A stretch of 60,983 nucleotides of DNA from Gemmatimonadales bacterium (GCA_041613315.1 JBFJHJ010000017.1:1-60983); one strand, 5' to 3'. Positions 30,362 to 48,341 are shown, counted from the stretch's first letter. Numbers and translations are program-made. The notes: a model not told the origin generated them from the sequence alone.

Positions 30362-30390
30362 AGGCTAACCGGAGGTTCCAAGGCCGTCAA
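30362..30390 (-). promoter_or_regulatory. sigma70 promoter for small membrane protein and tRNA-Val
   Basis: TTGACG-N17-TAGCCT, 8 nt before ATG 30353. Confidence 0.7.
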
Positions 30391-31253
30391 GCATAGCGGT
30401 TCCACTCATCCTCCGGGACGACCCACCCCGCGTCTAAGGCCTCGCGTCGGCCCCGGTCGCGGCGGCGGCGCCACCACCACAGCGCGGCCAACAGCACGCC
30501 CGCGATCCCCCAAAAGGCGCTGAAGGAGGTGAACACGAGGAGCCACCCGTAGCGCGTCCGCAGGTCCTTCTGCCACAGTGCCTCGAATTGCCCGAGCGTG
30601 ATCTGGTGCGTCGCGCGGAGCGCCAGATCGAAATCCCCGGTACCGCCGAGCGTCGTGATAATGGGCTCCAGACCGCGGTCTCGACCAAGCCGCTCCAGGA
30701 GCAGGACCGCGGTGGCGGCCAGCGCGTAGGCGGCTTCCGCCTGCACGGCGCCCCCGCGCCGCAAGTAGCCGTCCAGCTCACGCAGCGACGGCCGGGCGCC
30801 GCGGATCACGGCCCAGTTGACCCGCAACGCCTCGAGCCGAGTCCACTCCCCCGCCGCCCGGACGGCATAGCCTTCGTCGAACCAACGGGGCACGTGCTGG
30901 ACGGCGTCATGCAGCGCCAGGTGCGCCAGCTCGTGCCGCAGGGTCCGCCGCAGGTCGCCCGAGCGCCGCAGCACGATGGTGCGGGTGGCGGGGAAGGCGG
31001 CGCCCACCCCCCACTCCGGCAACCGTCCCGCGGTGAGGGAATCGAACCGGGCGGCGGTGGGCGCCAAGACGATCCGGATCGGCCGTGCGTCGGAGGTCCG
31101 AATGCCGGGCCACGGGCCTGCCGCATCGGCGAACTCCCCGAGAGCGGCGGCCAGGGTCGCATCCCCCGGCCAGTAGACCGCGGTGACGCGGCCGACCTGC
31201 ACGACGGCGGGGTCCTGCTGGACGGCGACGGCGACGAGGAGAAGCGCTAGCGT
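30387..31253 (-). CDS. Membrane-anchored zinc metallopeptidase (MA clan/gluzincin-like); start uncertain
   Basis: RHELAH plus PRWFDEGYA; hydrophobic N-terminus and a C-terminal TM followed by RRRR. The best SD-linked codon is ACG at 31253. Confidence 0.75.
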   Translation of the reverse strand, partial: TLALLLVAVAVQQDPAVVQVGRVTAVYWPGDATLAAALGEFADAAGPWPGIRTSDARPIRIVLAPTAARFDSLTAGRLPEWGVGAAFPATRTIVLRRSGDLRRTLRHELAHLALHDAVQHVPRWFDEGYAVRAAGEWTRLEALRVNWAVIRGARPSLRELDGYLRRGGAVQAEAAYALAATAVLLLERLGRDRGLEPIITTLGGTGDFDLALRATHQITLGQFEALWQKDLRTRYGWLLVFTSFSAFWGIAGVLLAALWWWRRRRDRGRREALDAGWVVPEDEWNRYA

Positions 31254-32107
31254 GGCGGCTCCTGCCCCTGAGCCGCACGCTCCAGCGCCTCCTGACAGCG
31301 CTTCCCCCAGGGATTGAACTTGTTTTGCCGGACGCCCCGCTCCCAGGTGCTCTTGGCCGCCTCCGGGTCGCCGCCGAACCACTGGGTTCGCCCCAACTCG
31401 TAGTACGCTTCGATCAGGTTGGGCCCGAGCTTCAGCGTCTTCTCGAAGAACGTCTGGGCATCTTCGTGCATCTCGCGCTCCAGGTACACCAGCCCGAGGT
31501 AGAAGTGCGCGTACAGGGTCGCCTTCTTGTCGTTGTCCAGCCGGATCGCTTTCGACAGGTGCTCGATGGCCTCGCCGAAGATCTGCTTCTTGAGACAGAT
31601 GTACCCGACGTTGATCCGGGCGAGCGAGTTCGCCGGCTCCTTCATCAGCACCTTCTGAAACGTGGCCAGCGCGTCGTCGTACTCCTCGTTCAGCATCTGC
31701 GCCCACCCCAGCAGCGATTCCGCCTGCACTTCTCCCGGCGACAGTTGCAGCGCTTTCGTGAGCGCCTGAATAGCGCCGGGGTAGTCGCCGAGCGAGATCA
31801 GGCTCCAGCCCTTCTCGATGAACGTCGACGCCCCAAGGTGATCGGCGTGCGGGATCGGCAGGCTCCCGGTGAACTGCGGGACCTGGTCGCCGCTGTCGTC
31901 CTGCACCAGCCGCTTGTACTTGTCAACCAGCTCCCGGATGCTCTCCTTGAGCGTGGTCAAGTCGCCGATGCCCTGATCCACACGCTTGAACAGGCCGATG
32001 ATGTCGCGTTTGACGTGCTCGCGCTGCTCCGGGGTGCGTGCGGTGCCGAGCCGGCGCGCAATATCGTCGTAGGCCGACCGGAGGGGCCCGATGAGGGATT
32101 CACTCAT
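31247..32107 (-). CDS. Coiled-coil + TPR protein
   Basis: N-terminal amphipathic helices followed by about 5 TPRs (GWSLISLGDY..A, LGWAQML, VGYICL, LGLVYL, LGRTQW). Confidence 0.85.
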   Translation of the reverse strand: MSESLIGPLRSAYDDIARRLGTARTPEQREHVKRDIIGLFKRVDQGIGDLTTLKESIRELVDKYKRLVQDDSGDQVPQFTGSLPIPHADHLGASTFIEKGWSLISLGDYPGAIQALTKALQLSPGEVQAESLLGWAQMLNEEYDDALATFQKVLMKEPANSLARINVGYICLKKQIFGEAIEHLSKAIRLDNDKKATLYAHFYLGLVYLEREMHEDAQTFFEKTLKLGPNLIEAYYELGRTQWFGGDPEAAKSTWERGVRQNKFNPWGKRCQEALERAAQGQEPPR

Positions 32108-32576
32108 CGGCCGCCTCCACCGTGAGCTGTTCCAACGCCAGCTTCTCCTTGCTCGAGAGCAGTTTGGCGGCGGAGAGGACGACGATCGTACGCGAGTTGA
32201 GGGTCACGATGCCGGTGATGTACTTCGCGGCGAGCCCGCGCACGATCGCGGGCGGCGGTGTGACCTGTTCGGCGGCCACCTTGAGCACCTCGAGCACCGC
32301 GTCGACGACCACGCCGATCTTGCCGTCCTCCCACTCCAGGATCACGATCCGCGTCTCGTCGTGGATCGGCGCGTCCAGACTCACGCGTTTGCGGAGGTCG
32401 ACCACCGGCACGACGGTATTGGCGAACGACACGACGCCTTCCAAGAAGTCCGGCGCCTTGGGAAGCGCCGCCGGTCGCTGGTAGCGGAGGATGCGCTCCA
32501 CCTGGAAGATATTGAAGGCGAAGTCCTGCCCGCCCAGGCGGAACGTCACGATCTGGACCTCGTCGCCGGCGCTCAT
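32100..32576 (-). CDS. cheW: Chemotaxis coupling protein CheW
   Basis: QIVTFRLG, VERIL, LPKAPDFLEGV, VVPVVDLRKR, IGVVVDAV. Confidence 0.92.
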   Translation of the reverse strand: MSAGDEVQIVTFRLGGQDFAFNIFQVERILRYQRPAALPKAPDFLEGVVSFANTVVPVVDLRKRVSLDAPIHDETRIVILEWEDGKIGVVVDAVLEVLKVAAEQVTPPPAIVRGLAAKYITGIVTLNSRTIVVLSAAKLLSSKEKLALEQLTVEAADE

Positions 32577-33001
32577 ACCCGCTCACCCACATCCGCGGCC
32601 ATCAGGCGTTCAGCCAGTGCCGCCATGTCCACGATTGGAATCAGTCCCTCCGGCGACCGCGCCACGCCCGACGCCCACGGCAGGCGCCACGCGCCGGGCG
32701 CCGGCTCCGGGGCCTGCCGCACCACGGCGTCCGCCCCGTCCACCTGGAACGCGACGGGCTTGCCGCCACACAGCGCCAGCACCACGGTGTCGCACGGCCG
32801 GGGCGACCGGTCGGTCAAGTGGAGGAGCTGTCCCAGATCGACGAGCGGCACGAGCTGGGTGCCGAGCCGCGTGACGCCCAGGACGGCCGGATGGGCGCCC
32901 GGCGCCGCCGCCACCTCGCCGCGGTCGGCGACTTGCCGCACGTCTTGCAGCCGCAGGCCCAAGCGTTCCTCGCCCACCCGAATCAAAAGATAGCCCTTCA
33001 C
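32573..33001 (-). CDS. cheW: CheW-domain protein (divergent)
   Basis: [31 protein letters not shown]. Confidence 0.8.
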
Positions 33002-34080
33002 CGATCCCCTCGCTCCATAAGGCGCGCCTCGATCTGCTCGGCGATCTGCGCCAGCGGCACCGCCGCGTCGACGGCGCCGGCCGCGACGGCCGCCCGGGGC
33101 ATGCCGTAAATCACCGATGATCCTTCGTCCTGCGCCAGGCCGCTCCCACCCGCCTGCCGGATGGCCTGCAATCCGTCCGCCCCGTCACGCCCCATGCCGG
33201 TCAGCACCACCCCGATGGCGCGGCGGCCGAACACCTCGGCCACCGACCGGAAGAGCGGATCGGCGGCAGGGCGCACACCCCAGACGGGCGGGTGTTGGTC
33301 GAGCCGCAGGCGGGGCCCGTCGCTCGCCGCGACCACGCGCATGTGATAGTCCCCCGGCGCCACGTACGCCGTATCCGTCAGAAACGGCGTATCGTCGTCG
33401 GCCTCGACCACGCGGAAGGCGCTCGCGCCGTCGAGCCGCTCCGCAAGGCTGCGGGTGAAGCGCGGCGGCATGTGTTGCACGATCAGCACCCCCGCCTCAC
33501 GCCCCGGGCTCAGGCGCGGCACGACTTCGGCGAGCGCCCGCGGCCCACCGGTACTGGCCGCGATCGCGATCGCAATGCGGGCCCGTCCGCGCACCACCCC
33601 GGTCGGCGGAGATGGCCGGGGGGGCACGGGGGCCGCCGCCAGCATCGGCACGCGGCTCCAATCGGCGGCAACCGCGGCCTCCAGCGCCGCCAACAGGGCC
33701 GGCGCGATCGTCAGCAGCCCATCGCGCGTGCCGTCGGCGGGCTTGGCCACGACTTCCACGGCTCCCAGCTCGAGCGCGCGGATCGCCGCCTCGGTGCCGG
33801 GGCCCGCGTACGCACTGACCACAACGATCGGCCGGGGTGTCTCGCTCATGATGTAGCCGATCGCGCTCAGGCCATCGAGCTGGGGCATCTCGATGTCCAT
33901 CGTGACGACGTCGGGATCGTACCGATGCACCTTCGCGACGGCGTCGAGTCCGTCCCGCGCCGTGCCCACGACGCGAAACCGGTCCGTCCGTCCGATGATG
34001 TCGCTCAGGACGCGCCGCAGCAGCGCGCTGTCATCCACCACCAGGACACTCGCGCGCCCGCTAGAGGACCTGGGCGTCAC
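32998..34080 (-). CDS. cheB: Chemotaxis methylesterase/response regulator CheB
   Basis: Receiver domain (VVDDS, TMDIEMP, AKP) plus catalytic ASTGGP, QHMP and GMGRDG. Confidence 0.96.
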
Positions 34081-34561
34081 TGCCCACCGAGCGTACCGTC
34101 ACGGTCCCCCGCGCGACGTCGAACCACACCGAGCGCCCGACCGTGCCGCCGACCACCTCCCCCACGACCGGGATGCCCGCCGTGCGGAGGCCCTCCCGAC
34201 ACGCCAACACGTTGCGCTCCCCGATGTGGGGACTGCCGGCCGGCAGCAGGTCGGCGAACATCGTGGCACCGCCGACGAGCCGGGCTTCGACGCGCGCGAG
34301 GTTGGCGCCCTCCGCCCGCATGGCGGCCAGTACGGCGGGGATCGCCGTATCCGCGCAGCGCGCCGGGTTGGACCGCCCGCGCGACAACGCCTGCGAGGGG
34401 AGCAGCACGTGGGCCAGCGCGCCAATGCCCTTCCCCGGATCGTACAGCAACACCGCGACACAACTCCCCAGACCGAGCGTGGCGAGCACGCCCGCGCCGT
34501 CCGCGACGATGAAGTCGCCCATATGGACGACGAGCTGCTGCGCGCTGCGGACGACTGTCAC
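34061..34561 (-). CDS. cheD: Chemoreceptor glutamine deamidase CheD
   Basis: [10 protein letters not shown] (Cys), AHVLLP (His), GGATMF, IGERN. Confidence 0.94.
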
Positions 34562-35373
34562 GGCCGGCGGTAGACGCGCTCACGCGCGTTGACGAGAGTG
34601 AACCGCCTCCGGACGTCGCCCAACAACGTCTCTACCTTGCCGAGCACCAGGAACCCGCCCGGCCGCAGCGCCTCGGCGAACCGTTCGTACAGACCTTCCT
34701 GCGTGGTTCGGTCGAAGTAGATGACGACGTTGCGACACATGATTAGGTCGTACGGCGCGAGGGGCGGCAGGTCACGGGTGAGGTCGTGCCGAACCAGGCG
34801 GACGAGCCCGCGCACCTCGGGGCACAGACGCCGCGGGCCCGCGCCCGTGGAGTAGCGTGCGACCAGGGACGCCGGCATGTCGTCAAACGCGCGCTCGGGA
34901 TACTGCGCGGCGTCCGCTCGGCCCAGGCTCGTCACGTCGTAGTCTGTTGCGTCGATCGTCGCCGGCGGCGGCGTCGGCGCGCCGTGGCGGCGCGCTTCCT
35001 CGAGCAGGAGGATGGCCAGGGTGTACGGCTCCTCTCCCGACGAGCAACCGGCGGACCAGCAGCGGGGGCGACCCTCGCGCTGCGACCACAGCTCGGGGAG
35101 CACCTGGTCGGCCAACAGGGCCCACGTTTCCGGGTTGCGGTAGAACTTCGTGACGTTGATGGTGAGGGCATCCAGGAGGCGCTCGTACTCGGCACCGTCG
35201 GCATCCAGCACGCGGGCGTATTGCTCATAGGTATGTACGCCGCGGGCGCGCATGCGCACCGCGATGCGGCGGCGCAGGCACCCGGGCTTGTAGGCATCGC
35301 ACGCGAAGCCCCGGTCGCGCGCGATCTTGCCCAGGAGCGCCGTAAAGCCGGGATCCGGCTCCGCCGAGCTCAC
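34558..35373 (-). CDS. cheR: Chemotaxis methyltransferase CheR
   Basis: LRRRIAVRM, LTINVTKFYRN, WSAGCSSGEEPY, CRNVVIYF. GTG start at 35373. Confidence 0.95.
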   Translation of the reverse strand: MSSAEPDPGFTALLGKIARDRGFACDAYKPGCLRRRIAVRMRARGVHTYEQYARVLDADGAEYERLLDALTINVTKFYRNPETWALLADQVLPELWSQREGRPRCWSAGCSSGEEPYTLAILLLEEARRHGAPTPPPATIDATDYDVTSLGRADAAQYPERAFDDMPASLVARYSTGAGPRRLCPEVRGLVRLVRHDLTRDLPPLAPYDLIMCRNVVIYFDRTTQEGLYERFAEALRPGGFLVLGKVETLLGDVRRRFTLVNARERVYRRP

Positions 35374-36989
35374 GCCAGGGCGCTCATCGTCTCGAGGTTG
35401 GTTCGGGCGAGCTCGTGGTGCGGGTTGAGCTCCAACGCCTTCTTCCACATCTCGGACGCATACTGCCGGTCCATCCGCTTGTAGGCGATGTTGCCGAGCT
35501 TGAAGTACACGTCGTCGCCCAATCGCGGCTGCAGCTTGATCGCCCGATGGTAGGCCTGCCACGCCTCGTCGTGGCGGCCGGCCCGATAGAGGATGTCGCC
35601 GAGGTTCTTCGACAGCTGCGGGAGCGACGGGTCGTCGGCCAACGCCGTGCGGAGGAGCTCCTCGGCCGGCTCCAGCTTGCCGAGCAACTCGAGCAGCACC
35701 GCCAGGGTGTTGCGGAGCACCGCGTGCTCGGCATGGTGCTCGAGTCCCTGGCGCACCACGGTCTCGGCTTCGTCGAACTGCTCGAGCCCCGCCGCCGCCA
35801 GCGACCGGGCCCAGTACCAGACCGCCGGCAACGGCCCGTCGCCGGCCACCTCCCGAGCCCGGTCGAGCCGGCCCACGGCGACCTCATAGTCGCCGCGCTG
35901 CAGCGCCGCGATCCCCCATCCGGTCAGCACCCGGTGGTCCCGGCGGGACATCGAGGCCGCCTCGGCGTAGGTGCTTTCGGCATCGTCCAGCCGGCCGGCC
36001 TTCTCGTAGGCCAAAGCCAGGTTGTGGAGCACCCCGCGGCGCGGTCCGCCGTGCTCCAGCGCCCCCTTGAACGCCTCCATGGCGTCGGCCCATCGCGCTT
36101 GCCGCAGCGCGAGCAGCCCGAGATAGAAGTGCGTGCTGCCGTCGGTGGGTCGCAGCTCGGACACGCGCCGGAACTCCCGCGTGGCCTCGTCCAGCATGCC
36201 CGTCTTGTAGAAGGCGATCCCTAAGTTGCGGTGCTCGTCCACCCGGGCGTCACCGACCTGCGCGAGGCGCGGCGCCTCGCTGCGGCCCGTGCGGTGGGCG
36301 AACCCGGCAGTGATGAGACCGTAGAGCGCCTTGCCCACCTCGAACTCCCCCAGCGCCGAGTCCTCGACGAGCCGCGCGACGTCTCGCGTCCCGTCGAGCA
36401 AGGCCAGGATGCGGTCCTGCTCGGGCGTGAGCGTGACCTGGGACGCCTCAACGCGCTCCCGGTCGGCCGTGAAGATGATGTCGAACGACGGGATCTTCTT
36501 CTCGATCAGGCTCCATTCGTCGACGCGGCGCGCCCCCTCCAGGAGCAGCGATTCCGGGTTAATGGACACCAGGAAGTCTTGCCGCTCGGGCCGCACCTCC
36601 GCCTCGAAGTTGAAGCTCCCCCGCGACCAGGTGAACAGGAAGTAGACCGCCTCTTCGATTTGCACGCGCATGTAGTGCTCGAGGTCGCGGCGCGAGACGG
36701 CCCCCTGCTCGACCAGGATCTCGCCGAGCCGCTTGTCGCGCTGGTGCCCCTGCTGCTCGATCCCGGCGTCGAGCTGCTGCTGCGTGATCTTGCCGTTCTT
36801 GGTGAGGATATCGCCCAGGCGGTCGCGCCGGTTCACGATCGATGCATAGGTGATGCGGCCACGATCGAAGTAGATGTAGCCGAGGTTGGTGCGGTCGGTG
36901 ATCGACAGGCATCCCGTCTTCTGCCCCAGGGCGAGGAGCTGCAGCACGTCGGGCAGCGACGCTTCCTTGAGACTCCCCTTGATGGCCAC
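35370..36989 (-). CDS. DUF4388 (PATAN-like) + MshEN-like + TPR protein
   Basis: IKGSLKEASLPDVLQLL..GQKTG.L, tandem RLGxIL motifs, LLLEGARRVDEW, a wHTH-like segment and about 8 TPRs. GTG start at 36989. Confidence 0.85.
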   Translation of the reverse strand: MAIKGSLKEASLPDVLQLLALGQKTGCLSITDRTNLGYIYFDRGRITYASIVNRRDRLGDILTKNGKITQQQLDAGIEQQGHQRDKRLGEILVEQGAVSRRDLEHYMRVQIEEAVYFLFTWSRGSFNFEAEVRPERQDFLVSINPESLLLEGARRVDEWSLIEKKIPSFDIIFTADRERVEASQVTLTPEQDRILALLDGTRDVARLVEDSALGEFEVGKALYGLITAGFAHRTGRSEAPRLAQVGDARVDEHRNLGIAFYKTGMLDEATREFRRVSELRPTDGSTHFYLGLLALRQARWADAMEAFKGALEHGGPRRGVLHNLALAYEKAGRLDDAESTYAEAASMSRRDHRVLTGWGIAALQRGDYEVAVGRLDRAREVAGDGPLPAVWYWARSLAAAGLEQFDEAETVVRQGLEHHAEHAVLRNTLAVLLELLGKLEPAEELLRTALADDPSLPQLSKNLGDILYRAGRHDEAWQAYHRAIKLQPRLGDDVYFKLGNIAYKRMDRQYASEMWKKALELNPHHELARTNLETMSALA

Positions 36990-38971
36990 TAGGTGAGCTC
37001 CTCGATCAGTCGTTCGGACGGATCGGGCCAGTACCACACCATCTTCTCGCGGCTCTGCACACCACCCGATGGCGACACCACGACGCCGCTGGTGCGCACG
37101 GCGGCGGGACGGCGGCGGGGCGGCGCCGCGCCCTCGATGAGCTCCCGCGCGAGGCCGGCGCTGGGAGCGACGCCCTGCGCATCGGCCCCACCCAGCACCC
37201 GCTGCACCAACCCGAGCAGCGCTCGCAGAGAGTCGGCCGGCCGCGCCGCGAGGTAGTCCGCCAGCTCCTCGTCCGCCGTCCCGAGACGTTCCTCCAACTT
37301 GCGCACGATGATCGCGCGGCGGAGATCGCGGTCCGGCGGCCCGATGGTCGCCACCAGGCCGCCCTCGAGACGGGAAACCAGGCGCTCATCGAGCCCCGGC
37401 ACATCGCGCGGCGGCAGCAGCGCCGTGAAGACGATCTGGCGGTTGGCGTCGGCCAGAAAGTTGAAAAGGTGGAACATTTCCTCCTGCGAGCGGTCCTTTC
37501 CCGCCAACAGGTGTACGTCGTCCAACAGGAACGCGGTGACATTACGGAACTGCGACCGCCAGCGGTCCACATGCTCCTCGTCGATCGCCCGGACCACCTC
37601 GTCCAGCAGCTGTTGCGCGGGCAGACACGCCACCCGCTGCCGGCGGCGCTCGGCGATCCCGTGGCCGATCGCGTGTAACAGGTGCGTTTTCCCCACCCCG
37701 GTCGGCCCCACCAGCACGAGCGGGTTGTATCGCTTCCCGGGCTGCTTGACCACCGCCCGAGCGGCGGTTAGCGCCACTTTGTTCGCGTCGCCGCCCACGA
37801 AGCCGTCGAACGACCACGCCGGCGACGGGCCGGGCGGCGGTGCCAGGCCGCGTTCGGCGGCTTCGACCAGATCCACCGCCTCATCCACCCGATCGGGATC
37901 GTGGAACACGGGATCGCTCGCGCGGTCGGGATCGATCCGTTCCATCGCCTGCTGCAGCCCACGGAGGCGCTCGATGTCCCGCTCGAACGCCTGGAGGACG
38001 TGCTCCGCCGAGGCGGGGACGTCTTGCTGAATGAGCTCCTCCAGCCGGGCGGTGCGGTACCCCTCGGCGTCCCACTTGAGGATCCCCTTGCCGAGGCGGG
38101 AGCGCCACACTTCCACCTGCTCCGTCACCGTGTGCGTGACGTCGGAGAGGAAGTCGGCAAACTCGTCGGTCGCCGCCTTGGCACGGGCCGGTGTCGAGCC
38201 GGCGCCCTTCCGGCGCGTGGGACGCGGTGTCGCGGGCGCCGCGCCCTCGGGCAGGTCCCCTTCAAGCAGCGCCTGGGCGGCGTCAGGCGCGAGCGGCGCC
38301 TCGCTGACCGCTTGAAACGCCACGAGGCGATTGAGCAGGCCCAGCAGCTCACGCACGTTCCCCAGCTCGAACCCCGCCGCCGTTTCGAGCACCCCGTCCA
38401 CGAACACCGAGCCCCGCTCCTCCGCCCGGCGCCGCAGGATCGCGAGCCGCGTCTCGTAGTCGGGAGCGCCGATGTCCACCACCAGCCCACCGTCAAACCG
38501 CGCAATGAGCCGCTCGTCGAGGTCGTTGAGCTCCGAGGGCGGTCGGTCGCTCGTGAGCACCACCTGCTTACCCTGGGATTGGAGGTGCGAGATCAGCCGC
38601 AACAGCTCCGCCTGGGTCTCCCGCCGATTCGTGAGGAACTGGACGTCGTCCACGAGCAGCACGTCGACACCCGCGAAGCGGTTACGGAACGCATCGCTCT
38701 GACCCGCCGCGACGGCCGTATGATACGCCTCGACGAACTCGTCGAGCGTGAGGTATTCGGCATGCAACCGGGGGGAGAGCTGCTTGGCCGTCTGGCCGAT
38801 GGCCATGAGCAGATGCGTCTTCCCGAGGCCCGTAGCGCTGTACACGAAGAGCGGGTTATAGGCCGTCCCCGGGGACTCGGCCACCGAGCGTGCCGCCGTC
38901 ACCGCGAGCTGGTTCGCGGAGCCGACGACGAAGCTGTCGAAGCTGAACCGCGGGTTCAACTCGACGGTCAT
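36989..38971 (-). CDS. Tandem DnaA/Hda-like AAA+ protein lacking DnaA domains I and IV
   Basis: Two DnaA domain-III copies: [31 protein letters not shown] and [33 protein letters not shown] 38971 overlaps the mglA stop. Confidence 0.88.
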
Positions 38972-39567
38972 TCGGGCGGGGCCTGGGAGAGCTTGCGCAA
39001 CACGAGCTCCGAGATCGCCTTGAGCGTCTCGAAGACGCCCTGCCCACGCAGCGCGTCGGCCGCGAAGCTGGGGGCGCTGCGGAAGTTCAAGGCCTCGTCC
39101 AGCTCCGGCGGGGTGAGCACGAGGTCCCCGGGCAGGTCCTGTTTGTTGTACTGCAGGACGAGCGGTACCTCGCGAACGTCCACCCCCTGCTCGAGAAAGT
39201 TGGCTTGGAGGTTCTGCAGGCTTTCGATGTTCTCGTCCAGCTGCCGCGCCTGGCTGTCGGCGACGAACACCACACCGTCGGCCCCCTGCAGCACCAGCTT
39301 TCGCGTGGCGTTGTAGTACACCTGCCCGGGCACGGTGTAGAGTTGGAACCGCGTCGTGAAGCCGGAGATACTGCCCAACTCCAGCGGCAGGAAATCGAAG
39401 AAGAGCGTGCGGTCGGTCTGCGTCGCGAGCGACACCATCCGCCCGCGCCGATCCTCCGGCACGCGGGCGTAGACGTACTGGAGATTGGTCGTCTTCCCCG
39501 AGCGTCCGGGCCCGTAATAGACGATCTTGCACGTGATCTCGCGGGTCGTGAAGTTGACCAGGGACAC
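38968..39567 (-). CDS. mglA: Ras-like small GTPase MglA
   Basis: [47 protein letters not shown]. Confidence 0.95.
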
Positions 39568-39570
39568 GAC

Positions 39571-40041
39571 TCACCCTCCGAAGAGCGCTGAGAGACTTTC
39601 GTTCAACTCGCGCTCGAAGTCCGCCGCCAGCACGGGTTTCTTCCGCTCGACCGGCGGGCACGCCGCATCGAGCTGGGCCGCGAGGTCCTCGAAAAACAGC
39701 TGTACCAGACCCATGGACGATTCCGTCCCGTACACGACCAACGCGAGGAGACGCCCGCGGGGCGTCGCGAACCCCGCCAAGAAAATGCCGTGCTCCACAC
39801 CCTGATGGTTGAGCGCGGTGAACTCGCGCGTCTCCATCAGTTTGGCCAGCTCCACGGTGGAAGCCATGATCGCCGCCCCCAGCGCCGCGGCCGACATCAC
39901 ATCCACCGCCCGGGTGAACCCGTGCTGCGCCAGCACCTGCCCCGCCGGCGTCATGAGGAGCGTCAGCCGCGCGCCGGTCTCGCCGATGAACCGCTCCAGC
40001 GGCTCCAGCGTCCAGGCCTCGACCGCCCGCGTCTTCTTCAC
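39571..40041 (-). CDS. mglB: Roadblock/LC7 protein, MglB-like
   Basis: AGQVLAQHG, AAALGAA..AS..ELAKL, HQG, GLVQL, C-terminal amphipathic helix; directly upstream of mglA. Confidence 0.8.
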   Translation of the reverse strand: MKKTRAVEAWTLEPLERFIGETGARLTLLMTPAGQVLAQHGFTRAVDVMSAAALGAAIMASTVELAKLMETREFTALNHQGVEHGIFLAGFATPRGRLLALVVYGTESSMGLVQLFFEDLAAQLDAACPPVERKKPVLAADFERELNESLSALFGG

Positions 40042-40388
40042 TCGAGCACCTCCGCCGCCCGAAGCATCTCCAACCGGACGAGCCCGACGTTGAGGTCCGC
40101 GTCCCCTACGGCGACGACGAGCACGCCGTCCGCCGCCGGCACGCTCAGCAGCGTGCCCCCTTCCCCCTGCAGGTGCAGGAAGTCCGGCATGCCGGCGCCG
40201 GCCGCCTCGGCAGCCTGCCGGAACCGCTTGACGAGGCTCGCCGCAAGCGCCGCCACGGCATTGCCGCGCACACCTTCCATCAGCGATTCCGCCACGACCA
40301 GCCCGTCCTCACCGGCGACGAGCATCGCCCCGCGCACTCCCCGCACGCGCGTGACGCGGTCGAGCACCTGACGATACTGTTCCGTCAT
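40038..40388 (-). CDS. Roadblock/LC7 protein (second paralog, MglB/MglC-like)
   Basis: GVRGAMLVAGEDGLVVAE, VAALAASL, NVGLVRLEM. ATG at 40388. Confidence 0.85.
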   Translation of the reverse strand: MTEQYRQVLDRVTRVRGVRGAMLVAGEDGLVVAESLMEGVRGNAVAALAASLVKRFRQAAEAAGAGMPDFLHLQGEGGTLLSVPAADGVLVVAVGDADLNVGLVRLEMLRAAEVLE

Positions 40389-41191
40389 CGCTCCTGGGCC
40401 TCCAACCACGCGCGCGCGATGTCGGCGGCCCGGTCGGCGATGCGCGTGAGGCGGCCGGCCGGCACGCTGCGGTCCTTCAGCAGGAGGAGTAACGCGTCAT
40501 TCTTGGGCTGCGTCACGTAGAGGTTCGCGCTCGGGCCCTCCGCGACGAGCCACCGCCAGGCCCCGAGCCCCAGGAGCCGCGCCGTCCGCTCCGCCTCTTG
40601 CGCCGCCCCCGCCAGGTACGCGGCGACCGCGGCCGCGACGTCGCGCCCGTCCGCCGCCCGAAGCCCACCTCCCAGAATGCGCCCCCGGTCGTCGACGAGG
40701 AGCAGTCCGTGGTCCGCCCCCTCCAGTCCCTCGAACACGGCGGCGGGATTGGGCGCGGGCGGCTCGGGCACCGGCGCCAGTTCGGCTTCGTCGATCGTGC
40801 CCCGCACCGTTCGCAGCGCCTGCACGACGCTCCGGTCGGCCGGGTCGGCCGACAAGGCCATCTCGAGATGCTCCAGGGCGCGCTCCAGGTCGCCCGCTCG
40901 GTAGCACACGAACCCCAGCCCCTTGCGGGCGCCGGCGTGTCGCGGCTCCTGCGCCACCACCTCGGCCCATAGCTCCGCCGCGCGCTCGGGCTCGTCCATG
41001 TCCACCAGGATGCGCGCGTAGAGATCCTTCCCGTCCACGAGATCGGGGTGCCGCTCCAGGCCGCCGAGCGCCACCTTGGCGGCCGCCTCGAGCTGGCCGG
41101 CTCGACGCAGCGCCTCGCCGAGGGCCGAGAACACGAGGCTGTCCGGCTCGCTCGCCAGCTGAGCGCTCATCTGCCGGATCTCGTCAGACAC
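40385..41191 (-). CDS. TPR + C-terminal roadblock-like domain protein
   Basis: Three TPR-like repeats, a Pro-rich linker, then GLLLVDDRGRIL...AAYLAG.AQEAERTARLLGLG.W..LVAEG. Confidence 0.72.
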   Translation of the reverse strand: MSDEIRQMSAQLASEPDSLVFSALGEALRRAGQLEAAAKVALGGLERHPDLVDGKDLYARILVDMDEPERAAELWAEVVAQEPRHAGARKGLGFVCYRAGDLERALEHLEMALSADPADRSVVQALRTVRGTIDEAELAPVPEPPAPNPAAVFEGLEGADHGLLLVDDRGRILGGGLRAADGRDVAAAVAAYLAGAAQEAERTARLLGLGAWRWLVAEGPSANLYVTQPKNDALLLLLKDRSVPAGRLTRIADRAADIARAWLEAQER

Positions 41192-42335: not shown

Positions 42336-42338
42336 GGC

Positions 42339-45026
42339 CTAGGCGGCCTCGGTCTGAAAGATCCGCTGCAGGTCGACGGCGGTGCGAGCGTGCTTGCGGG
42401 CGCGCTGCGCGAACGGGCCGCTGGGATCCAGCGCGATGACGCGCTCCCACCGCTCCACCGCTTCCGGATAGCGTTTGAGCCGGGCCAGCACCACGCCGGT
42501 GAAGAAGAGCGCACCCACGTGCCGATCATCGTAGGCCAGGATCTGCTCGAACGCCTCGAGCGCTTGCTCGGGCCGCTCGTCGTCGAGCAGCGCGTGTCCC
42601 AAGGCAAGGAGTGCGGCGAGGTCGGAGGGGTCGGTCGCGAGCACCTCCACCAGGAGGTTGACCGCCTTGCGCGCGCCGCCGGTCTTGCGGTACACGCTGG
42701 CCAGCGCCACGGCCGCATCGGAAAATGTCGGCAGCAGGTCCAGGGCCGCTGCATACGCCGCCGCGGCCGCCTCCCAGTCCTCGCGCTTCTCGTGCAGCTT
42801 GCCGAGGTCCACGTACACCTGGACGAATCGCGGGTCGAGCTCGAGTGCCTCGTCGTAGGCTTGGCGCGCCGATTCGAGGTCGCCGAGCCCCACGGTGATA
42901 TCGCCTTGGAGCTTCAGGATGTCCGGGCGTTGTGGCGCACGCTTGCGCGCGTCTTTGAGGGAGGCGAGCGCGGCCGCCGGGTCGCCGGCGGCGAGCTCGG
43001 TCTCCGCGAGGGCCAGGAGGACGGTCACGTCGTCGGGACAGTCGGCGGCGAGCGCCAGGGCGAGCGGCCGTGCTTCCGGCCCCCGCCGGAGCGCGAGGAG
43101 CGCACGAATCTCGCCGAGCCGCGCGTCGGGCCGGTCCGGGGCGAGCTGTTGCGCGGCGCGGAAGCGCTCGAGCGCCTCGCCGTGGAGGCCGCGCCGCGCG
43201 AAGACCGTGCCGAGGAGCGTGTGCGTCTCCACCAGGTCGGCCCCGCGGCCCAGCGCCCGATTCGTCTCCGCTGCCGCCAACTCGAGGAGCCCTTTGGTGA
43301 GGTAGTCGCGCGCCAACGCCAGCGCGTCGCCGGCGTCGCGCGAGGGTCGTTTCTGCGCCGGCTCCGCCAGCTCGGAGAAGAGGTCGTCCAGGAGGCTCTG
43401 ATCAAAGATCAGGCTCTGCGCGGTCAGGTCCGTGGTCACGTCGGCGGAGATCTCGGGCACGACCGCGATCGTGGATTCCTCGTACTGAAGGTCGATGGCG
43501 AGCCGGAACTTCTGGGGGACGTAATACGGATCCAGCGCCTGCGCGCGCGTCACCGCCCGGAGTGCGCCGTCGTAATCCCCGAGCCGCGAGAGCGCGAAGC
43601 TCAGGTTGTAATGGGCCTCGGCCGAGTCGGGGTCGCTTTCCACCGCCCGCGCGAACGCGTTGCGGGCATCTTCGGCGCGGCCGATCTCGGTGAGCACGAG
43701 CCCAATCCCGTTCCACGCCGGGCCAGAGTGCGCCTCCTGCTCCAGGACTTGGCGGAATACCTGCATCGAGAGCTGGAACCGCCGGAGCTTGAAGAGCAGC
43801 AGCCCGAGATTGAGCCGAGGGATGACCAGCCCGGGTTCCGCGTGGACGGCATCGCGTAGCGTTTCGACCGCTTCCTCGTGTTGCCCCACTTGCGCCAACG
43901 AGATTGCCAAGTTGTTCAGCGCGAGTGCGTACCGCGGGTCGATCTCCGCCGAGCGCCGGTAGGAGGCGATCGCCTCATCGAACTGGCCCAGCTGGTGGAA
44001 CACGACGGCGCGCTCGTTCCACAGTTTGGGCGAGTCCGCCACTTCAGCGACGAGGCCCTCGTACAGCTCCAAGGCGGCGACGTGGTCGCGCTTGAGGAGG
44101 TGCACCTCCGCCATCGCCTGGAGCACGAGGCGCCGATCCTCGCCGCGCTCGAGCGCCAGGCGATACTCGCGCAGCGCCTCGCCGTAGTAGCCCTGCTGGC
44201 GGAACGCCAGCCCGAGGTTGTAGTGCGCCAGCGCGCTTTGCTCCGCCACGCCGGGCTCGAGGGCGCGCTGCTCGGCCAAGCTCGGCCGAGCCCGCGCCCC
44301 GGACAGCCGGTCCAGCGAGAGGTTGGTCTGCGCCCGGGCGAACGTGGGATTGAGCTGGATCGCCCGCTTCGTCGCGGCCCGGGCCTCCTCGTGGCGGCCC
44401 ACGTCGCCCAGCGCGAACGCAATGAGATAATGGGCGTCTGCGTTCTCCGGATTGAGCTCGGTGGCACGGGTGAGCGCCTCCAACGCCTCGCTGTTCAGCC
44501 CGCGGTTGTAGAGCACCTCGCCGCGGTACAGTGCGACGACGCTGCTGTCGGGATCCAGCTCGGCCGCGCGGTCGAGCCACTCGGTGGCGACCTCGAGCCG
44601 GCCCCGGTTCTTCTCGGCCAACCCGAGCTGGATCAGCGCCGCCACGTCCCGGGCGTTGCGGCTGATCAGCGCCTGGAATTCCTCCACCGCCGGCTCGTAC
44701 TGCCCCAGCGAGGCGTACGCGCGCCCCAGCTCCCACCGCGCCTCCCGGTCATCGGGCTGCGCCCGCAGACGCTCGCGCAACTCGGCGATGCGCCGGTCGT
44801 AGTAGCCGGTCTCTTGGTAGGCGATCTCGAGGTTGCGCTGGGCGACCTGCATCTTCGAGTCGAGCTCCAGCGCACGCTTGAACTCGGCGATCGCCTCCTC
44901 GATCAAGCCTTTCTTGTAATAGAGAACGCCGAGGTTGTTGTGGGCGCCCGCATCCGACGGGTCGATTCGCTGCGCGAAGGACCGAAGGGTATCGCGATCC
45001 TTCTTGGAGATGCCCTGCGGTGGCAT
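42339..45026 (-). CDS. Large cytoplasmic TPR-repeat scaffold protein
   Basis: About 20 TPR-like repeats (AHNNLGVLY, AHYNLG, AWNGIG...); no signal peptide. Confidence 0.88.
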   Translation of the reverse strand: MPPQGISKKDRDTLRSFAQRIDPSDAGAHNNLGVLYYKKGLIEEAIAEFKRALELDSKMQVAQRNLEIAYQETGYYDRRIAELRERLRAQPDDREARWELGRAYASLGQYEPAVEEFQALISRNARDVAALIQLGLAEKNRGRLEVATEWLDRAAELDPDSSVVALYRGEVLYNRGLNSEALEALTRATELNPENADAHYLIAFALGDVGRHEEARAATKRAIQLNPTFARAQTNLSLDRLSGARARPSLAEQRALEPGVAEQSALAHYNLGLAFRQQGYYGEALREYRLALERGEDRRLVLQAMAEVHLLKRDHVAALELYEGLVAEVADSPKLWNERAVVFHQLGQFDEAIASYRRSAEIDPRYALALNNLAISLAQVGQHEEAVETLRDAVHAEPGLVIPRLNLGLLLFKLRRFQLSMQVFRQVLEQEAHSGPAWNGIGLVLTEIGRAEDARNAFARAVESDPDSAEAHYNLSFALSRLGDYDGALRAVTRAQALDPYYVPQKFRLAIDLQYEESTIAVVPEISADVTTDLTAQSLIFDQSLLDDLFSELAEPAQKRPSRDAGDALALARDYLTKGLLELAAAETNRALGRGADLVETHTLLGTVFARRGLHGEALERFRAAQQLAPDRPDARLGEIRALLALRRGPEARPLALALAADCPDDVTVLLALAETELAAGDPAAALASLKDARKRAPQRPDILKLQGDITVGLGDLESARQAYDEALELDPRFVQVYVDLGKLHEKREDWEAAAAAYAAALDLLPTFSDAAVALASVYRKTGGARKAVNLLVEVLATDPSDLAALLALGHALLDDERPEQALEAFEQILAYDDRHVGALFFTGVVLARLKRYPEAVERWERVIALDPSGPFAQRARKHARTAVDLQRIFQTEAA

Positions 45027-45030
45027 GCGG

Positions 45031-45651
45031 TCACGCGAGACGGATGGCGTCGAAAATCGCCTTGAGCGACGCCAGGTCGGGAAGCAGTAGGAAATGGCCC
45101 CGCAGCGCGTGGCCGGCCTCCTCGAACTGGAAGTCGGTCTCCACGCACAGCACGTAGTCGCGGTCCCGGCCGAAGTTGAGGTAGGCCGTCGTGACGACGG
45201 CCGCGGAAAGGTCGATCACCAAGCTCGGCACCGACGGGAGCAGCATCATTCCCATGAAATCCGACAGGGCGTTCATGTAGGCCCCACCCAGAATATTGCC
45301 CGCCTCCTTGAGGGCCGATTGCTCGAGTTCGTGGAACGAACCCGTGGTCGCCGGCGGTCGGCGCAGCAGCAGGTCGCACAACAGCCGGGCGGCGGGCTCG
45401 TCCATGACGAACAACGTGCGGCCGGTCAAATCGCCCAGCATATGCATCAGCACGGCCGCCACCACCTCCTCCGGATCCCCCAACAGCTCGTCTACGTCCT
45501 CCAGCGGGGTGATTGTGATCTGCGGCACACTGATCATGATGCGGCGGTTGGTGAGCTGCGAGAGGGCCGTGGCGGCGTGGCCCGCGCCGATGTTGGCCAC
45601 CTCGCGAAGCGCGTCCACCTGCAACGCCTTGAGCTCGCGCACGTCGTCCAT
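45031..45651 (-). CDS. cheC: CheY-P phosphatase CheC
   Basis: Two E-x2-N active sites: DALREVANIGAGHAATALS and SALKEAGNIL; PSVP. Confidence 0.95.
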   Translation of the reverse strand: MDDVRELKALQVDALREVANIGAGHAATALSQLTNRRIMISVPQITITPLEDVDELLGDPEEVVAAVLMHMLGDLTGRTLFVMDEPAARLLCDLLLRRPPATTGSFHELEQSALKEAGNILGGAYMNALSDFMGMMLLPSVPSLVIDLSAAVVTTAYLNFGRDRDYVLCVETDFQFEEAGHALRGHFLLLPDLASLKAIFDAIRLA

Positions 45652-45663
45652 GCCGCAGTCTCC

Positions 45664-47532
45664 CTACACCAAGCCGCCGGCATCCAGGATGAGGGCCGGC
45701 GCTCCGTCGCTGAGGATCGTGGCGCCGCTGAAGATCGGCAGCGTGCCCTGGGGCGGGTCGAACGCCTTGACCACGATTTCCTGCTGGCCGGCCAGGGCAT
45801 CCACCACCAGTCCGCCCCGCCGATCCCCGATCTCGAGGATGATCACCGGCCGCCGCGCCGGCGGCTCACCCCCCTGCTGGAGCAGTCGGCGCAGGTGTAT
45901 CAGCGGGACCACGTCGGCCCGAACCGACATGGCGTCCCGGTTGTCCACCCGGGTGACCAGGGCCGCGTCGAACGCCAGCGTTTCCGCCACATGGGTGAGC
46001 GGTACAGCGTAGCGCTCCCGCCCGACCTGCGCGATGAGCGCCCTCACAATCGCCAGGGTCGTGGGCACTCGGAGCGTAAACGTGGTCCCCTGGCCGGCTT
46101 CGGTCCGGATCTCCATCGAGCCCCCCAGGACCCGGAGCTGCACGGCCACGGCGTCGATCCCGACCCCGCGGCCGGAGACATCGGACACTCTGGCGGCCGT
46201 CGAGAACCCCGGTCGGGCCAGGATGCGCAGCAGCAGCTCGTCGGTCAGGTACTCGATCCCCTCCTCCACCATGCCCCGTTGCTTCGCGAGCTGGAGCAGC
46301 GCCGCCCGGTCGATCCCCCGCCCGTCGTCGCTCACCCGGATCGCCACCGACGCCCGCTCCCGCATGGCGCTCAGCACGATCCGCCCTTCGGGCGGCTTCC
46401 CGGCCGCGCGCCGGTCCGTGGGGGGCTCGATGCCGTGGTCCACGGCGTTGCGGAGCAGGTGCACCAGGGAGTCGCCCATCTCGTCCAGGATCGCGCGGTC
46501 GAGCTCGATCTCCTTGCCCTCCACCTCGAAGCTCACCTGCTTGTCCAGTTGTCTGGCGAGGTCGCGCACGAGGCGCGGGAACCGGTCGAAGACCTGCCAC
46601 ACGGGGGTCATGCGCGCCTGGACGATCTCGCCCTGCAGCTGCCCGCTGAGTTGGGCGATCTTGATCGCCAAGTCCTCGAGCGCCGGGTCCGCTCGCTGGG
46701 TCGACAACTCGATCAGCCGGTTCTTCGCCGTCGCGAGCTCACCCACCAGGTCCATGAGCGCGTCGAGCCGTTTGAGCGCCACCCGGATGTGTTGCGTGCG
46801 GCCCGCGCCGCCCTCGACCTGGGGAGCGGCGCTCTCGGCAGCGCCGATCGTGAGCTCCGCCACCTCCCCCACCTTGCGAAGCTCCGCCTCGAGCTCCTCG
46901 TCATCCCGCGAACTCTCGAGCCGAAAGACGAAGCGCCCGTCGAATTCCTCCGCCTCGAGGGCCACGGGCGCCGGCTCCACCGAGTGCACCGCGCCCAGGC
47001 CCTTGGCGCGGGCGAGGAGCAGGACGGCCCGCGCCCCCTTGAGCGGGGTCTCCGGTTGCAACACCACCCGCACCGTGCGCCCGGTCCCGGTCGGGGCGGC
47101 GACCACGGGGGCGGACGGCCGCGCACCCTCCGACCGCTGCGCCGCCGACTCGTGGCTGGCGGCTACCCGGTCGAGGGCGGCGGCAACGGCACCCACGTCC
47201 ACGTCCGCCTCCTGTCCCGACACAGCCGCTTGGATGGCGCGCTCCAGCGCGTCGGCGGTCCGGAACAGCAGCTGCAGCGTGTCCGGGGCGGGACCGGCGG
47301 CGCTACGGCGCAGGAGGTCGAGGAGGTTCTCGGTGCGGTGGGCAAGGTCGGCGACCGTCGCATACCCCATGGTCGCCGCCATGCCTTTGATCGTGTGGAT
47401 CGCCCGGAACACGCCGCCGACGGGTTCGGGGGCGTCCGGCCGCCGCTCCCATTCGAGGAGCAGCTGATTCACGGCATTGAGGTGCTCGCGGCTCTCCGCC
47501 AGGAAGAGTTCGGCGTACTGAGCGTGGTCCAT
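45664..47532 (-). CDS. cheA: Chemotaxis histidine kinase CheA
   Basis: P1 FRAIHTIKG, a P2 domain, LDALMDLVGEL, HLLRNAVDHGIE, DDGRG, PGFSTA, SGRGVGID, CheW-like P5. Confidence 0.97.
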   Translation of the reverse strand: MDHAQYAELFLAESREHLNAVNQLLLEWERRPDAPEPVGGVFRAIHTIKGMAATMGYATVADLAHRTENLLDLLRRSAAGPAPDTLQLLFRTADALERAIQAAVSGQEADVDVGAVAAALDRVAASHESAAQRSEGARPSAPVVAAPTGTGRTVRVVLQPETPLKGARAVLLLARAKGLGAVHSVEPAPVALEAEEFDGRFVFRLESSRDDEELEAELRKVGEVAELTIGAAESAAPQVEGGAGRTQHIRVALKRLDALMDLVGELATAKNRLIELSTQRADPALEDLAIKIAQLSGQLQGEIVQARMTPVWQVFDRFPRLVRDLARQLDKQVSFEVEGKEIELDRAILDEMGDSLVHLLRNAVDHGIEPPTDRRAAGKPPEGRIVLSAMRERASVAIRVSDDGRGIDRAALLQLAKQRGMVEEGIEYLTDELLLRILARPGFSTAARVSDVSGRGVGIDAVAVQLRVLGGSMEIRTEAGQGTTFTLRVPTTLAIVRALIAQVGRERYAVPLTHVAETLAFDAALVTRVDNRDAMSVRADVVPLIHLRRLLQQGGEPPARRPVIILEIGDRRGGLVVDALAGQQEIVVKAFDPPQGTLPIFSGATILSDGAPALILDAGGLV

Positions 47533-47535
47533 GCG

Positions 47536-47898
47536 CTAGCCGAGCACCCGCTGCACCGCCTCGAGCACGCGGGACGGCTGGAACGGCTTGACGACGAAGT
47601 CCTTGGCGCCGGCCTGGATCGCCTCGACGACCAGCGCCTGCTGGCCCATCGCGCTGCACATGAGAACCCGTGCCTCGGCATCGAACTTCACAATCTCGCG
47701 CACGGCGTCGATCCCGCCCATGTCGGGCATCACAATGTCCATGGTGACGAGATCCGGCTTCAGCTGCTTGTACTTCTCCACGGCCTGCACCCCGGTCTCG
47801 GCTTCGCCCACCACCTCGAACCCCGCCTGGGTCAGGATGTCACTGATCATGGTGCGCATGAAGATCGCGTCGTCGCAGACGAGCACCGTGTGGCTCAC
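47536..47898 (-). CDS. cheY: Chemotaxis response regulator CheY (Bacillus/Thermotoga type)
   Basis: DDAIFMR, TMDIVMP, CSAMGQQ, FVVKPF. Confidence 0.95.
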   Translation of the reverse strand: MSHTVLVCDDAIFMRTMISDILTQAGFEVVGEAETGVQAVEKYKQLKPDLVTMDIVMPDMGGIDAVREIVKFDAEARVLMCSAMGQQALVVEAIQAGAKDFVVKPFQPSRVLEAVQRVLG

Positions 47899-47906
47899 AC
47901 GTCCCC

Positions 47907-48341
47907 CTACAGACTGATGATTGGAGCGAGCAATGGTTCGAGATCGAGAAGCACGAACGGCAGGTCACCCCGCCGTCCAACCGCCCGCACAACCCGCGGG
48001 TCCATCCCCGGGAGCTCCGCGCGGTCCGACAGCTCCGCCTCGGCGGTCGCAAAGAGGTCCACCACTTCGTCCACCAAGAACGCGACGGTGCGATGCCCGA
48101 CGTCGAGCAGCAGCATGGAGCCCTCGCGGTCTGCCCGCCGCTGCTGCAGCGCCTGCCGCCCGTCCACTAGGGTCACCACTGTCCCCCGGACGTTGACCAG
48201 CCCGAGCACCGCATCCGCGGCGCCCGGCACGCGGGTCGCCGGCTGGACGGGCAGGATCTCACGGGCGGCCGACGCATCCACGGCGCACACCAGGTCCGCC
48301 ACCCGGAACGCCAGGATTCGATCGCCCGCCAAGTCGGCCAT
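47907..48341 (-). CDS. cheW: Chemotaxis coupling protein CheW
   Basis: TRVPGA..AVLGLVNVRG, VAFLVDEV, LLDL. ATG at 48341. Confidence 0.88.
   Translation of the reverse strand: MADLAGDRILAFRVADLVCAVDASAAREILPVQPATRVPGAADAVLGLVNVRGTVVTLVDGRQALQQRRADREGSMLLLDVGHRTVAFLVDEVVDLFATAEAELSDRAELPGMDPRVVRAVGRRGDLPFVLLDLEPLLAPIISL

Follow-up and report, generated by a model that had tools for sequence, protein, structure and literature searches.

A conserved gene block joining a Thermotoga/Bacillus-type chemosensory set to an MglA/MglB module in Gemmatimonadota and Candidatus Edwardsbacteria

Does a chemosensory relay encoded together with a polarity GTPase act on that GTPase, and if so, to what end? The question is raised by 19 minus-strand genes at positions 30387-48341 of a Gemmatimonadales contig, where che genes are interleaved with mglA, mglB, further roadblock genes, tetratricopeptide repeat (TPR) scaffolds and a DnaA-derived ATPase. 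Here, the window is the whole stretch of 60,983 nt that was analysed, to which all positions refer; G-labels denote genomes (G000 being that of the window), L-labels fetched loci and C-labels contigs. The block is real, conserved and functionally undescribed, and it resembles the chemosensory-MglA-pilus circuit of Myxococcus, built from a different che class. It is common to two phyla, many members of which have no detected flagellar motor gene. With a probability of about 0.5, phosphorylated CheY (CheY-P), MglA-GTP and cyclic di-GMP (c-di-GMP) are predicted from sequence to converge on PATAN-TPR adaptors which set the pole of the type IVa pilus motor.

Gene order and conservation

The number, order and domains of the genes had been proposed in an earlier note on this DNA and were borne out by Pfam and NCBIfam profile searches. 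From 48341 to 30387 the genes are:

47907..48341, minus: cheW1, receptor-kinase coupling (144 residues; PF01584, E 9e-24)
47536..47898, minus: cheY, Thermotoga/Bacillus type (120 residues; best PDB match T. maritima CheY 1tmy, E 4e-51)
45664..47532, minus: cheA with Hpt, P2, dimer, kinase and CheW domains (622 residues)
45031..45651, minus: cheC, CheY-P phosphatase with two ExxN sites
42339..45026, minus: T895, all-TPR scaffold of 895 residues
41184..42335, minus: D4a, PATAN(DUF4388)-MshEN-TPR protein 1 (383 residues; PF14332; NF053729 at 37.1 bits, cut-off 38)
40385..41191, minus: TPR-roadblock fusion (268 residues)
40038..40388, minus: single roadblock without C-terminal helix (116 residues; PF03259)
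39571..40041, minus: mglB-like roadblock with acidic C-terminal tail (156 residues)
38968..39567, minus: mglA paralogue, Group 1 small GTPase (199 residues; PDB 6h17, E 1e-75)
36989..38971, minus: tandem ATPase of DnaA domain III type (660 residues; two PF00308 stretches)
35370..36989, minus: D4b, PATAN-MshEN-TPR protein 2 (539 residues; PF14332; NF053729 at 47.7 bits, cut-off 38)
34558..35373, minus: cheR methyltransferase (271 residues)
34061..34561, minus: cheD deamidase, Cys-His intact (166 residues)
32998..34080, minus: cheB, receiver and methylesterase (NF001965 above cut-off)
32573..33001, minus: cheW2, fast-evolving (142 residues)
32100..32576, minus: cheW3 (158 residues)
31247..32107, minus: T286, N-terminal helical region and TPRs (286 residues)
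30387..31250, minus: HExxH+E metallopeptidase with signal-like N-terminus and C-terminal membrane anchor (PF13485 below cut-off; start uncertain)

MglA was matched at 71% identity or more in 95 of the 151 Gemmatimonadota genomes searched, the window's genome included, and 93 loci were fetched: 78 by their MglA match, 10 by a CheY match in genomes without a close MglA, and five representing the other MglA paralogue. The window's gene order was kept without violation in all 88 block loci, which is more than chance would give in related loci. Five of these touch a contig end and were excluded from the counts. Among the remaining 83, cheY, cheA and cheC accompany mglA in 74, six retain mglA only, two che genes only and one neither; all 19 gene slots are filled in 45 and rluD lies upstream in 83. 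The linkage of the two halves asserted in the earlier note extends to most relatives, and to a second phylum. The CheY query (E 1e-30) had no match in any of 26 genomes from six further families. The most conserved block gene is cheY, at a median identity of 88%.

In the window the catalytic residues are all in place, and they are nearly invariant in relatives; the residue counts include the window sequence and, for MglA, the paralogue loci as well: CheY D54 (82/82), CheA H46 (65/65), CheC E116/N119 (80/80), CheD C34/H51 (69/69), the CheB Ser-His-Asp set (69/69), MglA R53 (84/90), the two Walker A lysines of the ATPase (77/77 and 76/77) and the HExxH+E residues of the peptidase (78/78).

In a tree of the CheA core, the Gemmatimonadota proteins form one clade (support 0.99), to which a Candidatus (Ca.) Edwardsbacteria protein is sister (0.97). 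Further named neighbours belong to Acidobacteriota, Geothermincolia and archaea, together with archaeal and Bacillota-type CheA, an organism name beyond "bacterium" being available for just 8 of the 20 CheA clusters looked up. A genome scan with distant CheAs covered at least 608 matches, so that other phyla were sampled only; one of 80 loci, from Edwardsbacteria, carried the Mgl block, and mglA lay within 10 kb in none of the 79 other che loci among the matches listed. A plasmid search brought up distant CheA references only. In Edwardsbacteria the order of the block is the same and the upstream neighbour genes differ. Of the 19 genomes of this phylum, 17 have a block MglA of at least 73% identity, G169 has a 64% copy that is likewise part of the block, and the order was unchanged in all 13 genomes inspected, as far as the contigs reach. 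There the block ends in cheB-T286-cheW, often followed by receptor (methyl-accepting chemotaxis protein, MCP) genes; the ATPase has a single AAA+ module, and the peptidase gene was not found in these loci. Metagenomes scanned with the Edwardsbacteria ATPase yielded four close relatives and nothing else. The membrane domain of an in-cluster Edwardsbacteria receptor resembles those of two orphan receptors in the window's genome weakly and with a composition bias, and was unused as evidence. Insertions are also seen in Edwardsbacteria, namely a helix-turn-helix gene between D4a and the TPR-roadblock gene (L101:16878-17258) and, separating cheD from cheB, a lipoprotein-like gene (L185:6996-7784).

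Junctions measured -8 to +12 bp, in keeping with the tight packing first described. The cheD-cheB value depends on the start chosen, being a 20-bp overlap with the GTG start at 34080 and a 19-bp gap with that at 34041. A scan inside the block for promoters and terminators found no terminator-like and no promoter-like site, the sigma-70 consensus being uninformative here; a Pfam search of the block genes revealed no chemoreceptor gene, and the block holds no polysaccharide gene. Upstream, the rluD stop falls 1 bp ahead of the cheW1 start and rluD belongs to a same-strand run that includes lspA, dksA and ileS, so that the unit has no upstream boundary (lspA is present twice upstream of rluD in L038-L040 and L055). 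On the 3' side come tRNA-Val, a TPR gene and tRNA-Asp, then rsmH, ftsI and murE; with a 231-bp gap, the two tRNA genes and the TPR gene separate the block from rsmH. That TPR gene (28259-30025) encodes an exported protein of 588 residues and adjoins the block throughout the Gemmatimonadota loci.

At the last junction the genes overlap, and ATG, GTG or TTG is absent ahead of the signal-like stretch of the peptidase. In 74 of 76 loci the reading frame of the peptidase overlaps the stop codon of T286 in one constant phase (window 31202-31260), and a short hydrophobic signal-like stretch begins at the codon spanning that stop. The codon is CTG in 34 loci, CTA in 21, GTA in 11, ATA in 4, TTG in 2 and GTG in 2. 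A start codon of the three kinds lies within -10 to +3 codons of the junction in just 12 of 74 loci, and within +6 in 22; at ten other junctions one lies within -10 to +6 in proportions from 64/78 to 100%. Possibly, translation re-initiates at non-canonical codons, or the two proteins are fused by a frameshift.

Chemosensory class and cellular output

The earlier note had assigned the che set to the Thermotoga/Bacillus type, and this holds for CheA, CheC, CheD and CheY alike. CheA carries a P2 domain of that type (PF07194, E 3e-12; origin of the model, PMC10782961), has five domains and no fused receiver. The best solved relatives of both CheA and CheY are the T. maritima proteins. Class F1 systems are characterized by the presence of CheC and CheD and by 44-heptad receptors, T. 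maritima 2CH7 being labelled as such a 44H receptor. The window's genome encodes six receptors, five of them orphans and the sixth part of a second che cluster on C13; four of the six share their tip-to-end length, and one of these four aligns to 2CH7 over 303 versus 303 residues. P2-type CheA, CheC/CheD and receptor length are, at the level of sequence, the class F1 pattern. Three genomes without che genes have no receptor at all, which ties the orphan receptors to the block CheA. The second cluster (G000:C13:13970-23093) comprises a P2-less cheA, cheW, a receptor, a HEAT-repeat protein, cheR, cheB, cheY and cheC, the last two at 60% and 51% identity to those of the window.

The flagellar or archaellar output that belongs to class F1 was mostly missing. 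A search for FliG found none in the window's genome (83% complete), in 53 of the 74 genomes that hold both halves (completeness of 90% or above in nearly all) or in any of 19 Edwardsbacteria genomes (completeness not given), implying that flagella are not the main output; in four of five flagellated genomes tested, another CheA lies 30-70 kb from fliG. The co-occurrence of genes thus favours a non-flagellar output, as had been suggested. Ordinary flagellar chemotaxis of the Bacillus/Thermotoga kind, with unrelated genes inserted, would suit the closeness of CheY to its T. maritima counterpart, the 21 of 74 genomes in which FliG is present, and G123, which has FliG and in which only the block CheA was matched. 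Set against so many genomes in which FliG was not found and the separate CheA near fliG, such an arrangement is hardly credible.

Type IV pili are widely available. PilM was found in 137 of 151 Gemmatimonadota genomes and 18 of 19 from Edwardsbacteria; the window's genome holds pilB-pilT-pilC with no PilM match, and the four block-bearing genomes without a PilM match all keep PilB- and PilT-sized ATPases. In G039 (99% complete), the block is reduced to cheY and fragments, with no PilM, no MCP and no PilB-PilT pair. Two precedents point to how such a block might reach the motor: in Synechocystis the PATAN domain by itself is enough to bind PilB1 and PilC and to reverse phototaxis (10.1101/2021.06.11.447907), and in M. 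xanthus the TPRs of SgmX bind MglA and the FrzS receiver and activate pili, PilB being recruited by an unknown route (PMC11580455). The outputs offered in the earlier note fared differently, in that pilus polarity is supported and the support for asymmetric division is circumstantial. A second PilB/GspE-like ATPase of 791 residues with a C-terminal receiver is encoded at G000:C15:51461-53836 and is a possible direct phosphorylation target; one of like size is the large ATPase left in G039.

A Dif-like output has to be weighed at this point, in which the relay and MglA control exopolysaccharide, an adhesin or secretion, pili being an input or side branch and CheY mainly a phosphate sink. M. xanthus DifE carries a P2 domain (PMC3945109 Table 2), and DifD and DifG are CheY and CheC homologues, DifD being such a sink (PMC4671073). 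Block CheY is identical to DifD at all five primary and at three of the seven secondary specificity residues, the tree being without Dif sequences; the five primary residues are present in T. maritima CheY too and hence mark the class, not Dif. The start of the block, cheW-cheY-cheA-cheC, has the same order as difC-difD-difE-difG, and c-di-GMP motifs are compatible with surface attachment. No Myxococcota occur among the named close CheA relatives (8 of 20 clusters named), and the lack of a polysaccharide gene in the block tells further against this output, which appears unlikely.

The Mgl half and wiring suggested by natural deletions

Group 1 MglA proteins are defined by a P-loop, a G2 arginine, TVPGQ and [NT]KxD (PMC4316618), and the block MglA has the P-loop, the intrinsic G2 arginine (R53), TVPGQ and NKxD. 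A separate, canonical ybaB-recR-mglB-mglA run lies at G000:C39:8750-11140 (recR-mglB-mglA at 8750-10818). In M. xanthus, too, mglBA is linked to recR. The MglA proteins of the block group in a clade of their own across both phyla (support 0.82), and by sequence the block protein is a paralogue of the recR-linked copy. The C39 MglA carries some 30 extra residues inserted close to its C-terminus. In L089-L095, from one genus, the G2 arginine is lost in 6 of 6 and further motifs are missing in several; mglB, the ATPase and D4b are retained there, and the MglA is probably a pseudo-GTPase. The acidic C-terminal tail of block MglB resembles the Ct-helix of MglB, which gives the M. xanthus protein its exchange activity (PMC6785124).

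D4a and D4b consist of a PATAN domain with a helical insertion that scores as an MshEN motif, followed by TPRs; Foldseek with the D4b model returned TPR proteins only. The tandem RLGxxL MshEN motif (NF053729) exceeds the curated cut-off in D4b and narrowly misses it in D4a, so the c-di-GMP motifs claimed earlier are real sequence features of these proteins. The first MshEN arginine is kept in 82 of 87 D4b proteins and is proline in 46 of 71 D4a proteins. Both are predicted c-di-GMP-binding scaffolds, and the window's genome has eight GGDEF matches. With its presence in 82 of 83 loci, D4b is a candidate hub kept with either half. Complex prediction for CheY with full-length D4b scored 0.00 in two runs, in which the controls did not fold.

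The ATPase model consists of two DnaA domain III AAA+ modules, a helical linker bundle, a disordered stretch and one conserved C-terminal helix. Foldseek gave a template-modelling score of 0.94 over domain III of B. subtilis DnaA (8bv3), and both modules keep intact motifs, arginine fingers included. No Pfam match at E 0.01 was obtained for the DNA-binding domain IV or domain I, and the model closes with the disordered stretch and the terminal helix; the terminal motif is kept in 67 of 82 proteins and in Edwardsbacteria. Homologues bear Gemmatimonadota names and are often labelled DnaA in databases. Another DnaA-like gene on C33 is presumably the true initiator.

Patterns of natural deletion suggest wiring between these parts. 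The che genes are cleanly lost and the ten-gene block kept in L057, L065, L082 and L084, che fragments persist in L058, and che is nearly gone in L031, where mglA-D4b-cheR-T286 is the minimal set. The Mgl block is lost and che kept with D4b and T286 in L087 and L088. Since D4b and T286 are present in both types of loss, they travel with either half; T895 is lost along with the Mgl genes and kept when che is lost. In two loci of two families, L008 (G035) and L050 (G095), CheA stops after the kinase domain and lacks exactly P5; CheW, CheR, CheD and CheB are absent, CheY, CheC and the Mgl block are intact, and an MCP search gave no match in G035. That the relay is retained when every receptor-coupling part is gone suggests that it works within the block. 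Furthermore, wherever the ATPase is present the last D4b TPRs are complete (80 of 80 loci), and wherever it is missing they are truncated (6 of 6; L056, cut by a contig end, was excluded); five of these six also lack the MshEN insertion in D4b. A joint loss of cheR and mglB was considered and ruled out, L017 and L032 being without cheR but with mglB, and L031 and L035 showing the reverse. In L031 (G110), cheR stands between D4b and T286 in a locus without cheA, cheY, cheB and cheW, with one receptor about 60 kb off.

The same deletions bear on whether the halves communicate at all. Two modules might merely share an operon, an orphan-receptor relay with its own target beside a free-running MglA/PATAN polarity block, as the independent loss of each half (6 and 2 of 83) would allow; the block also sits within a long housekeeping run, from rluD to the dcw cluster, where synteny is generally kept. 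The halves are nevertheless interleaved rather than adjacent, and this interleaving is kept in the second phylum with other flanks; CheA-CheY-CheC stay with the Mgl block after receptor-coupling loss in two families, and D4b and T286 remain with either half. Uncoupled modules are consequently judged quite unlikely. A role in the cell cycle, where the DnaA-derived ATPase would tie MglA and c-di-GMP to replication or to new-pole marking at division or budding, draws on the two domain III modules with their intact motifs, on the position of the block just upstream of rsmH-ftsI-murE and on the location of PatA at division planes in Anabaena (discussion in 10.1101/2021.06.11.447907). Here, the ATPase has no DNA-binding domain that could be found and co-varies with the D4b TPRs, the whole block can be lost (G039, and the 26 CheY-negative genomes of six other families), and tRNA genes, a TPR gene and a gap intervene before rsmH, which makes a division device improbable.

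Proposed mechanism and comparison with known systems

The convergence of CheY-P, MglA-GTP and c-di-GMP on adaptors of the pilus motor can be laid out stepwise. From family knowledge and intact residues, receptors encoded elsewhere would control CheA through the three CheWs, with CheR, CheB and CheD adapting the receptors, and CheA would phosphorylate CheY, which CheC would reset. Subsequently, CheY-P may bind a TPR scaffold (T895, T286 or the D4b TPRs), comparable to the binding of the FrzS receiver by SgmX, and in this bound form bias the MglA GTP cycle run by MglB and the extra roadblocks; control of that cycle by MglB is family knowledge. MglA-GTP and c-di-GMP would then load the PATAN-MshEN-TPR proteins at one pole, where PATAN would engage PilB/PilC. 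Finally, as the co-loss suggests, the C-terminal helix of the ATPase may dock on the last D4b TPRs, ATP being used to assemble or reset the complex.

Several points weigh against this mechanism. PilM is near-universal, also in genomes without the block, so that co-occurrence fails to single out pili and shows only their availability; joint loss of block and pilus ATPases is seen in one genome, G039; and G123 pairs FliG with the block CheA. Each half survives alone, che being lost or decayed in 6 of 83 loci and mgl lost in 2, and because loci were picked by MglA or CheY match, total losses are undercounted. The six ATPase-less loci represent three genera of one family and hence one to three events. 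In the genus with degenerate MglA (catalytic arginine lost in 6 of 6), T895 is cut to one third and cheY, cheA and cheC persist, and all three roadblock genes are lost in L034, L038-L040 and L055. An indispensable D4b is ruled out by L091 and by the Edwardsbacteria locus L197, the latter having neither D4b nor the ATPase. The literature search found no experiment on any block protein. Contrary to the earlier note, the switch is also not self-contained, with six receptors encoded elsewhere, a canonical recR-mglB-mglA on another contig and either half losable.

If the mechanism applies, an old kind of chemosensory system in at least two phyla would have its CheY gate a Ras-like GTPase through TPR scaffolds, a DnaA-derived ATPase would build or reset the polar pilus-activating complex, and some kinases without a receptor-coupling domain would be internal to the polarity switch; this wider proposal is tentative and should be regarded with some doubt. 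Its significance lies in the steps from chemosensory relay to polarity GTPase and from MglA to pilus motor, which are unresolved in Myxococcus, the step from SgmX to PilB being called unknown there (PMC11580455): the parts are scattered in that organism, and here candidates stand in one conserved operon. The deletions point to testable pairs, namely the ATPase tail with the D4b TPRs, CheY with the scaffolds and PATAN with PilB-PilC. Moreover, an abundant phylum would use a Thermotoga-type system for something other than flagella, and a DnaA-derived ATPase would act in signalling.

The earlier note knew of no characterised system of this composition. That stands as regards function, no functional description having been found in a literature search outside which most subscription papers lay, and needs amending in one respect: the only entry found is a 2014 table row (PMC4316618, supplement file 3), which gives G. 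aurantiaca GAU_1409 as "PATAN>MglA>-PATAN>" with a separate MglB>MglA pair. It records the centre of a reduced form of the block; in that single row the che genes, TPR scaffolds and ATPase are unnamed and no function is given. The same article places PATAN genes near some Group 1 and 5 mglA genes.

Among known systems, class F1 of Bacillus, Thermotoga and archaea shares with the block the Thermotoga-type P2 CheA, CheC, CheD, a very similar CheY and receptors of 2CH7 length. It differs in that there is mostly no flagellar motor to act on here, cheC and cheD are parted by eight non-che genes and cheR, and no mglA lies near any of the 79 other che loci among the matches listed. Dif (Che2) is likewise a non-flagellar P2-type CheA system with CheY- and CheC-like partners, and its first four genes stand in the same order. 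It comes with the receptor DifA and EpsW-to-polysaccharide signalling and is not encoded with MglA, whereas the window's block has no MCP gene, the Edwardsbacteria loci carrying theirs directly after the block. With DnaA and Hda, the ATPase has the domain III fold and motifs in common; it differs by tandem copies (one in Edwardsbacteria), by domains I and IV not being found and by its own docking-like C-terminal helix. PatA-type regulators of the cyanobacterial Tax/Pix systems also combine PATAN bearing a helical insertion with a chemosensory link, and their PATAN binds PilB1/PilC (10.1101/2021.06.11.447907); here PATAN is joined to TPRs in place of a receiver, its insertion is scored as an MshEN motif, and MglA and roadblocks are co-encoded. 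The Frz-MglA/MglB/RomRX-SgmX/FrzS circuit of M. xanthus, which controls type IVa pili, also has a chemosensory relay, a Group 1 MglA, roadblock regulators and TPR scaffolds binding both a receiver and MglA (PMC11580455, PMC4316618). Its genes are spread over the chromosome rather than grouped (PMC4316618), and its kinase FrzE lacks P2 and is fused to a receiver (PMC3945109 Table 2), whereas here one operon, without a RomR-type receiver fusion, brings together P2-type CheA, CheC/CheD, a paralogous MglA, three roadblock domains, PATAN-MshEN-TPR proteins and a DnaA-derived ATPase.

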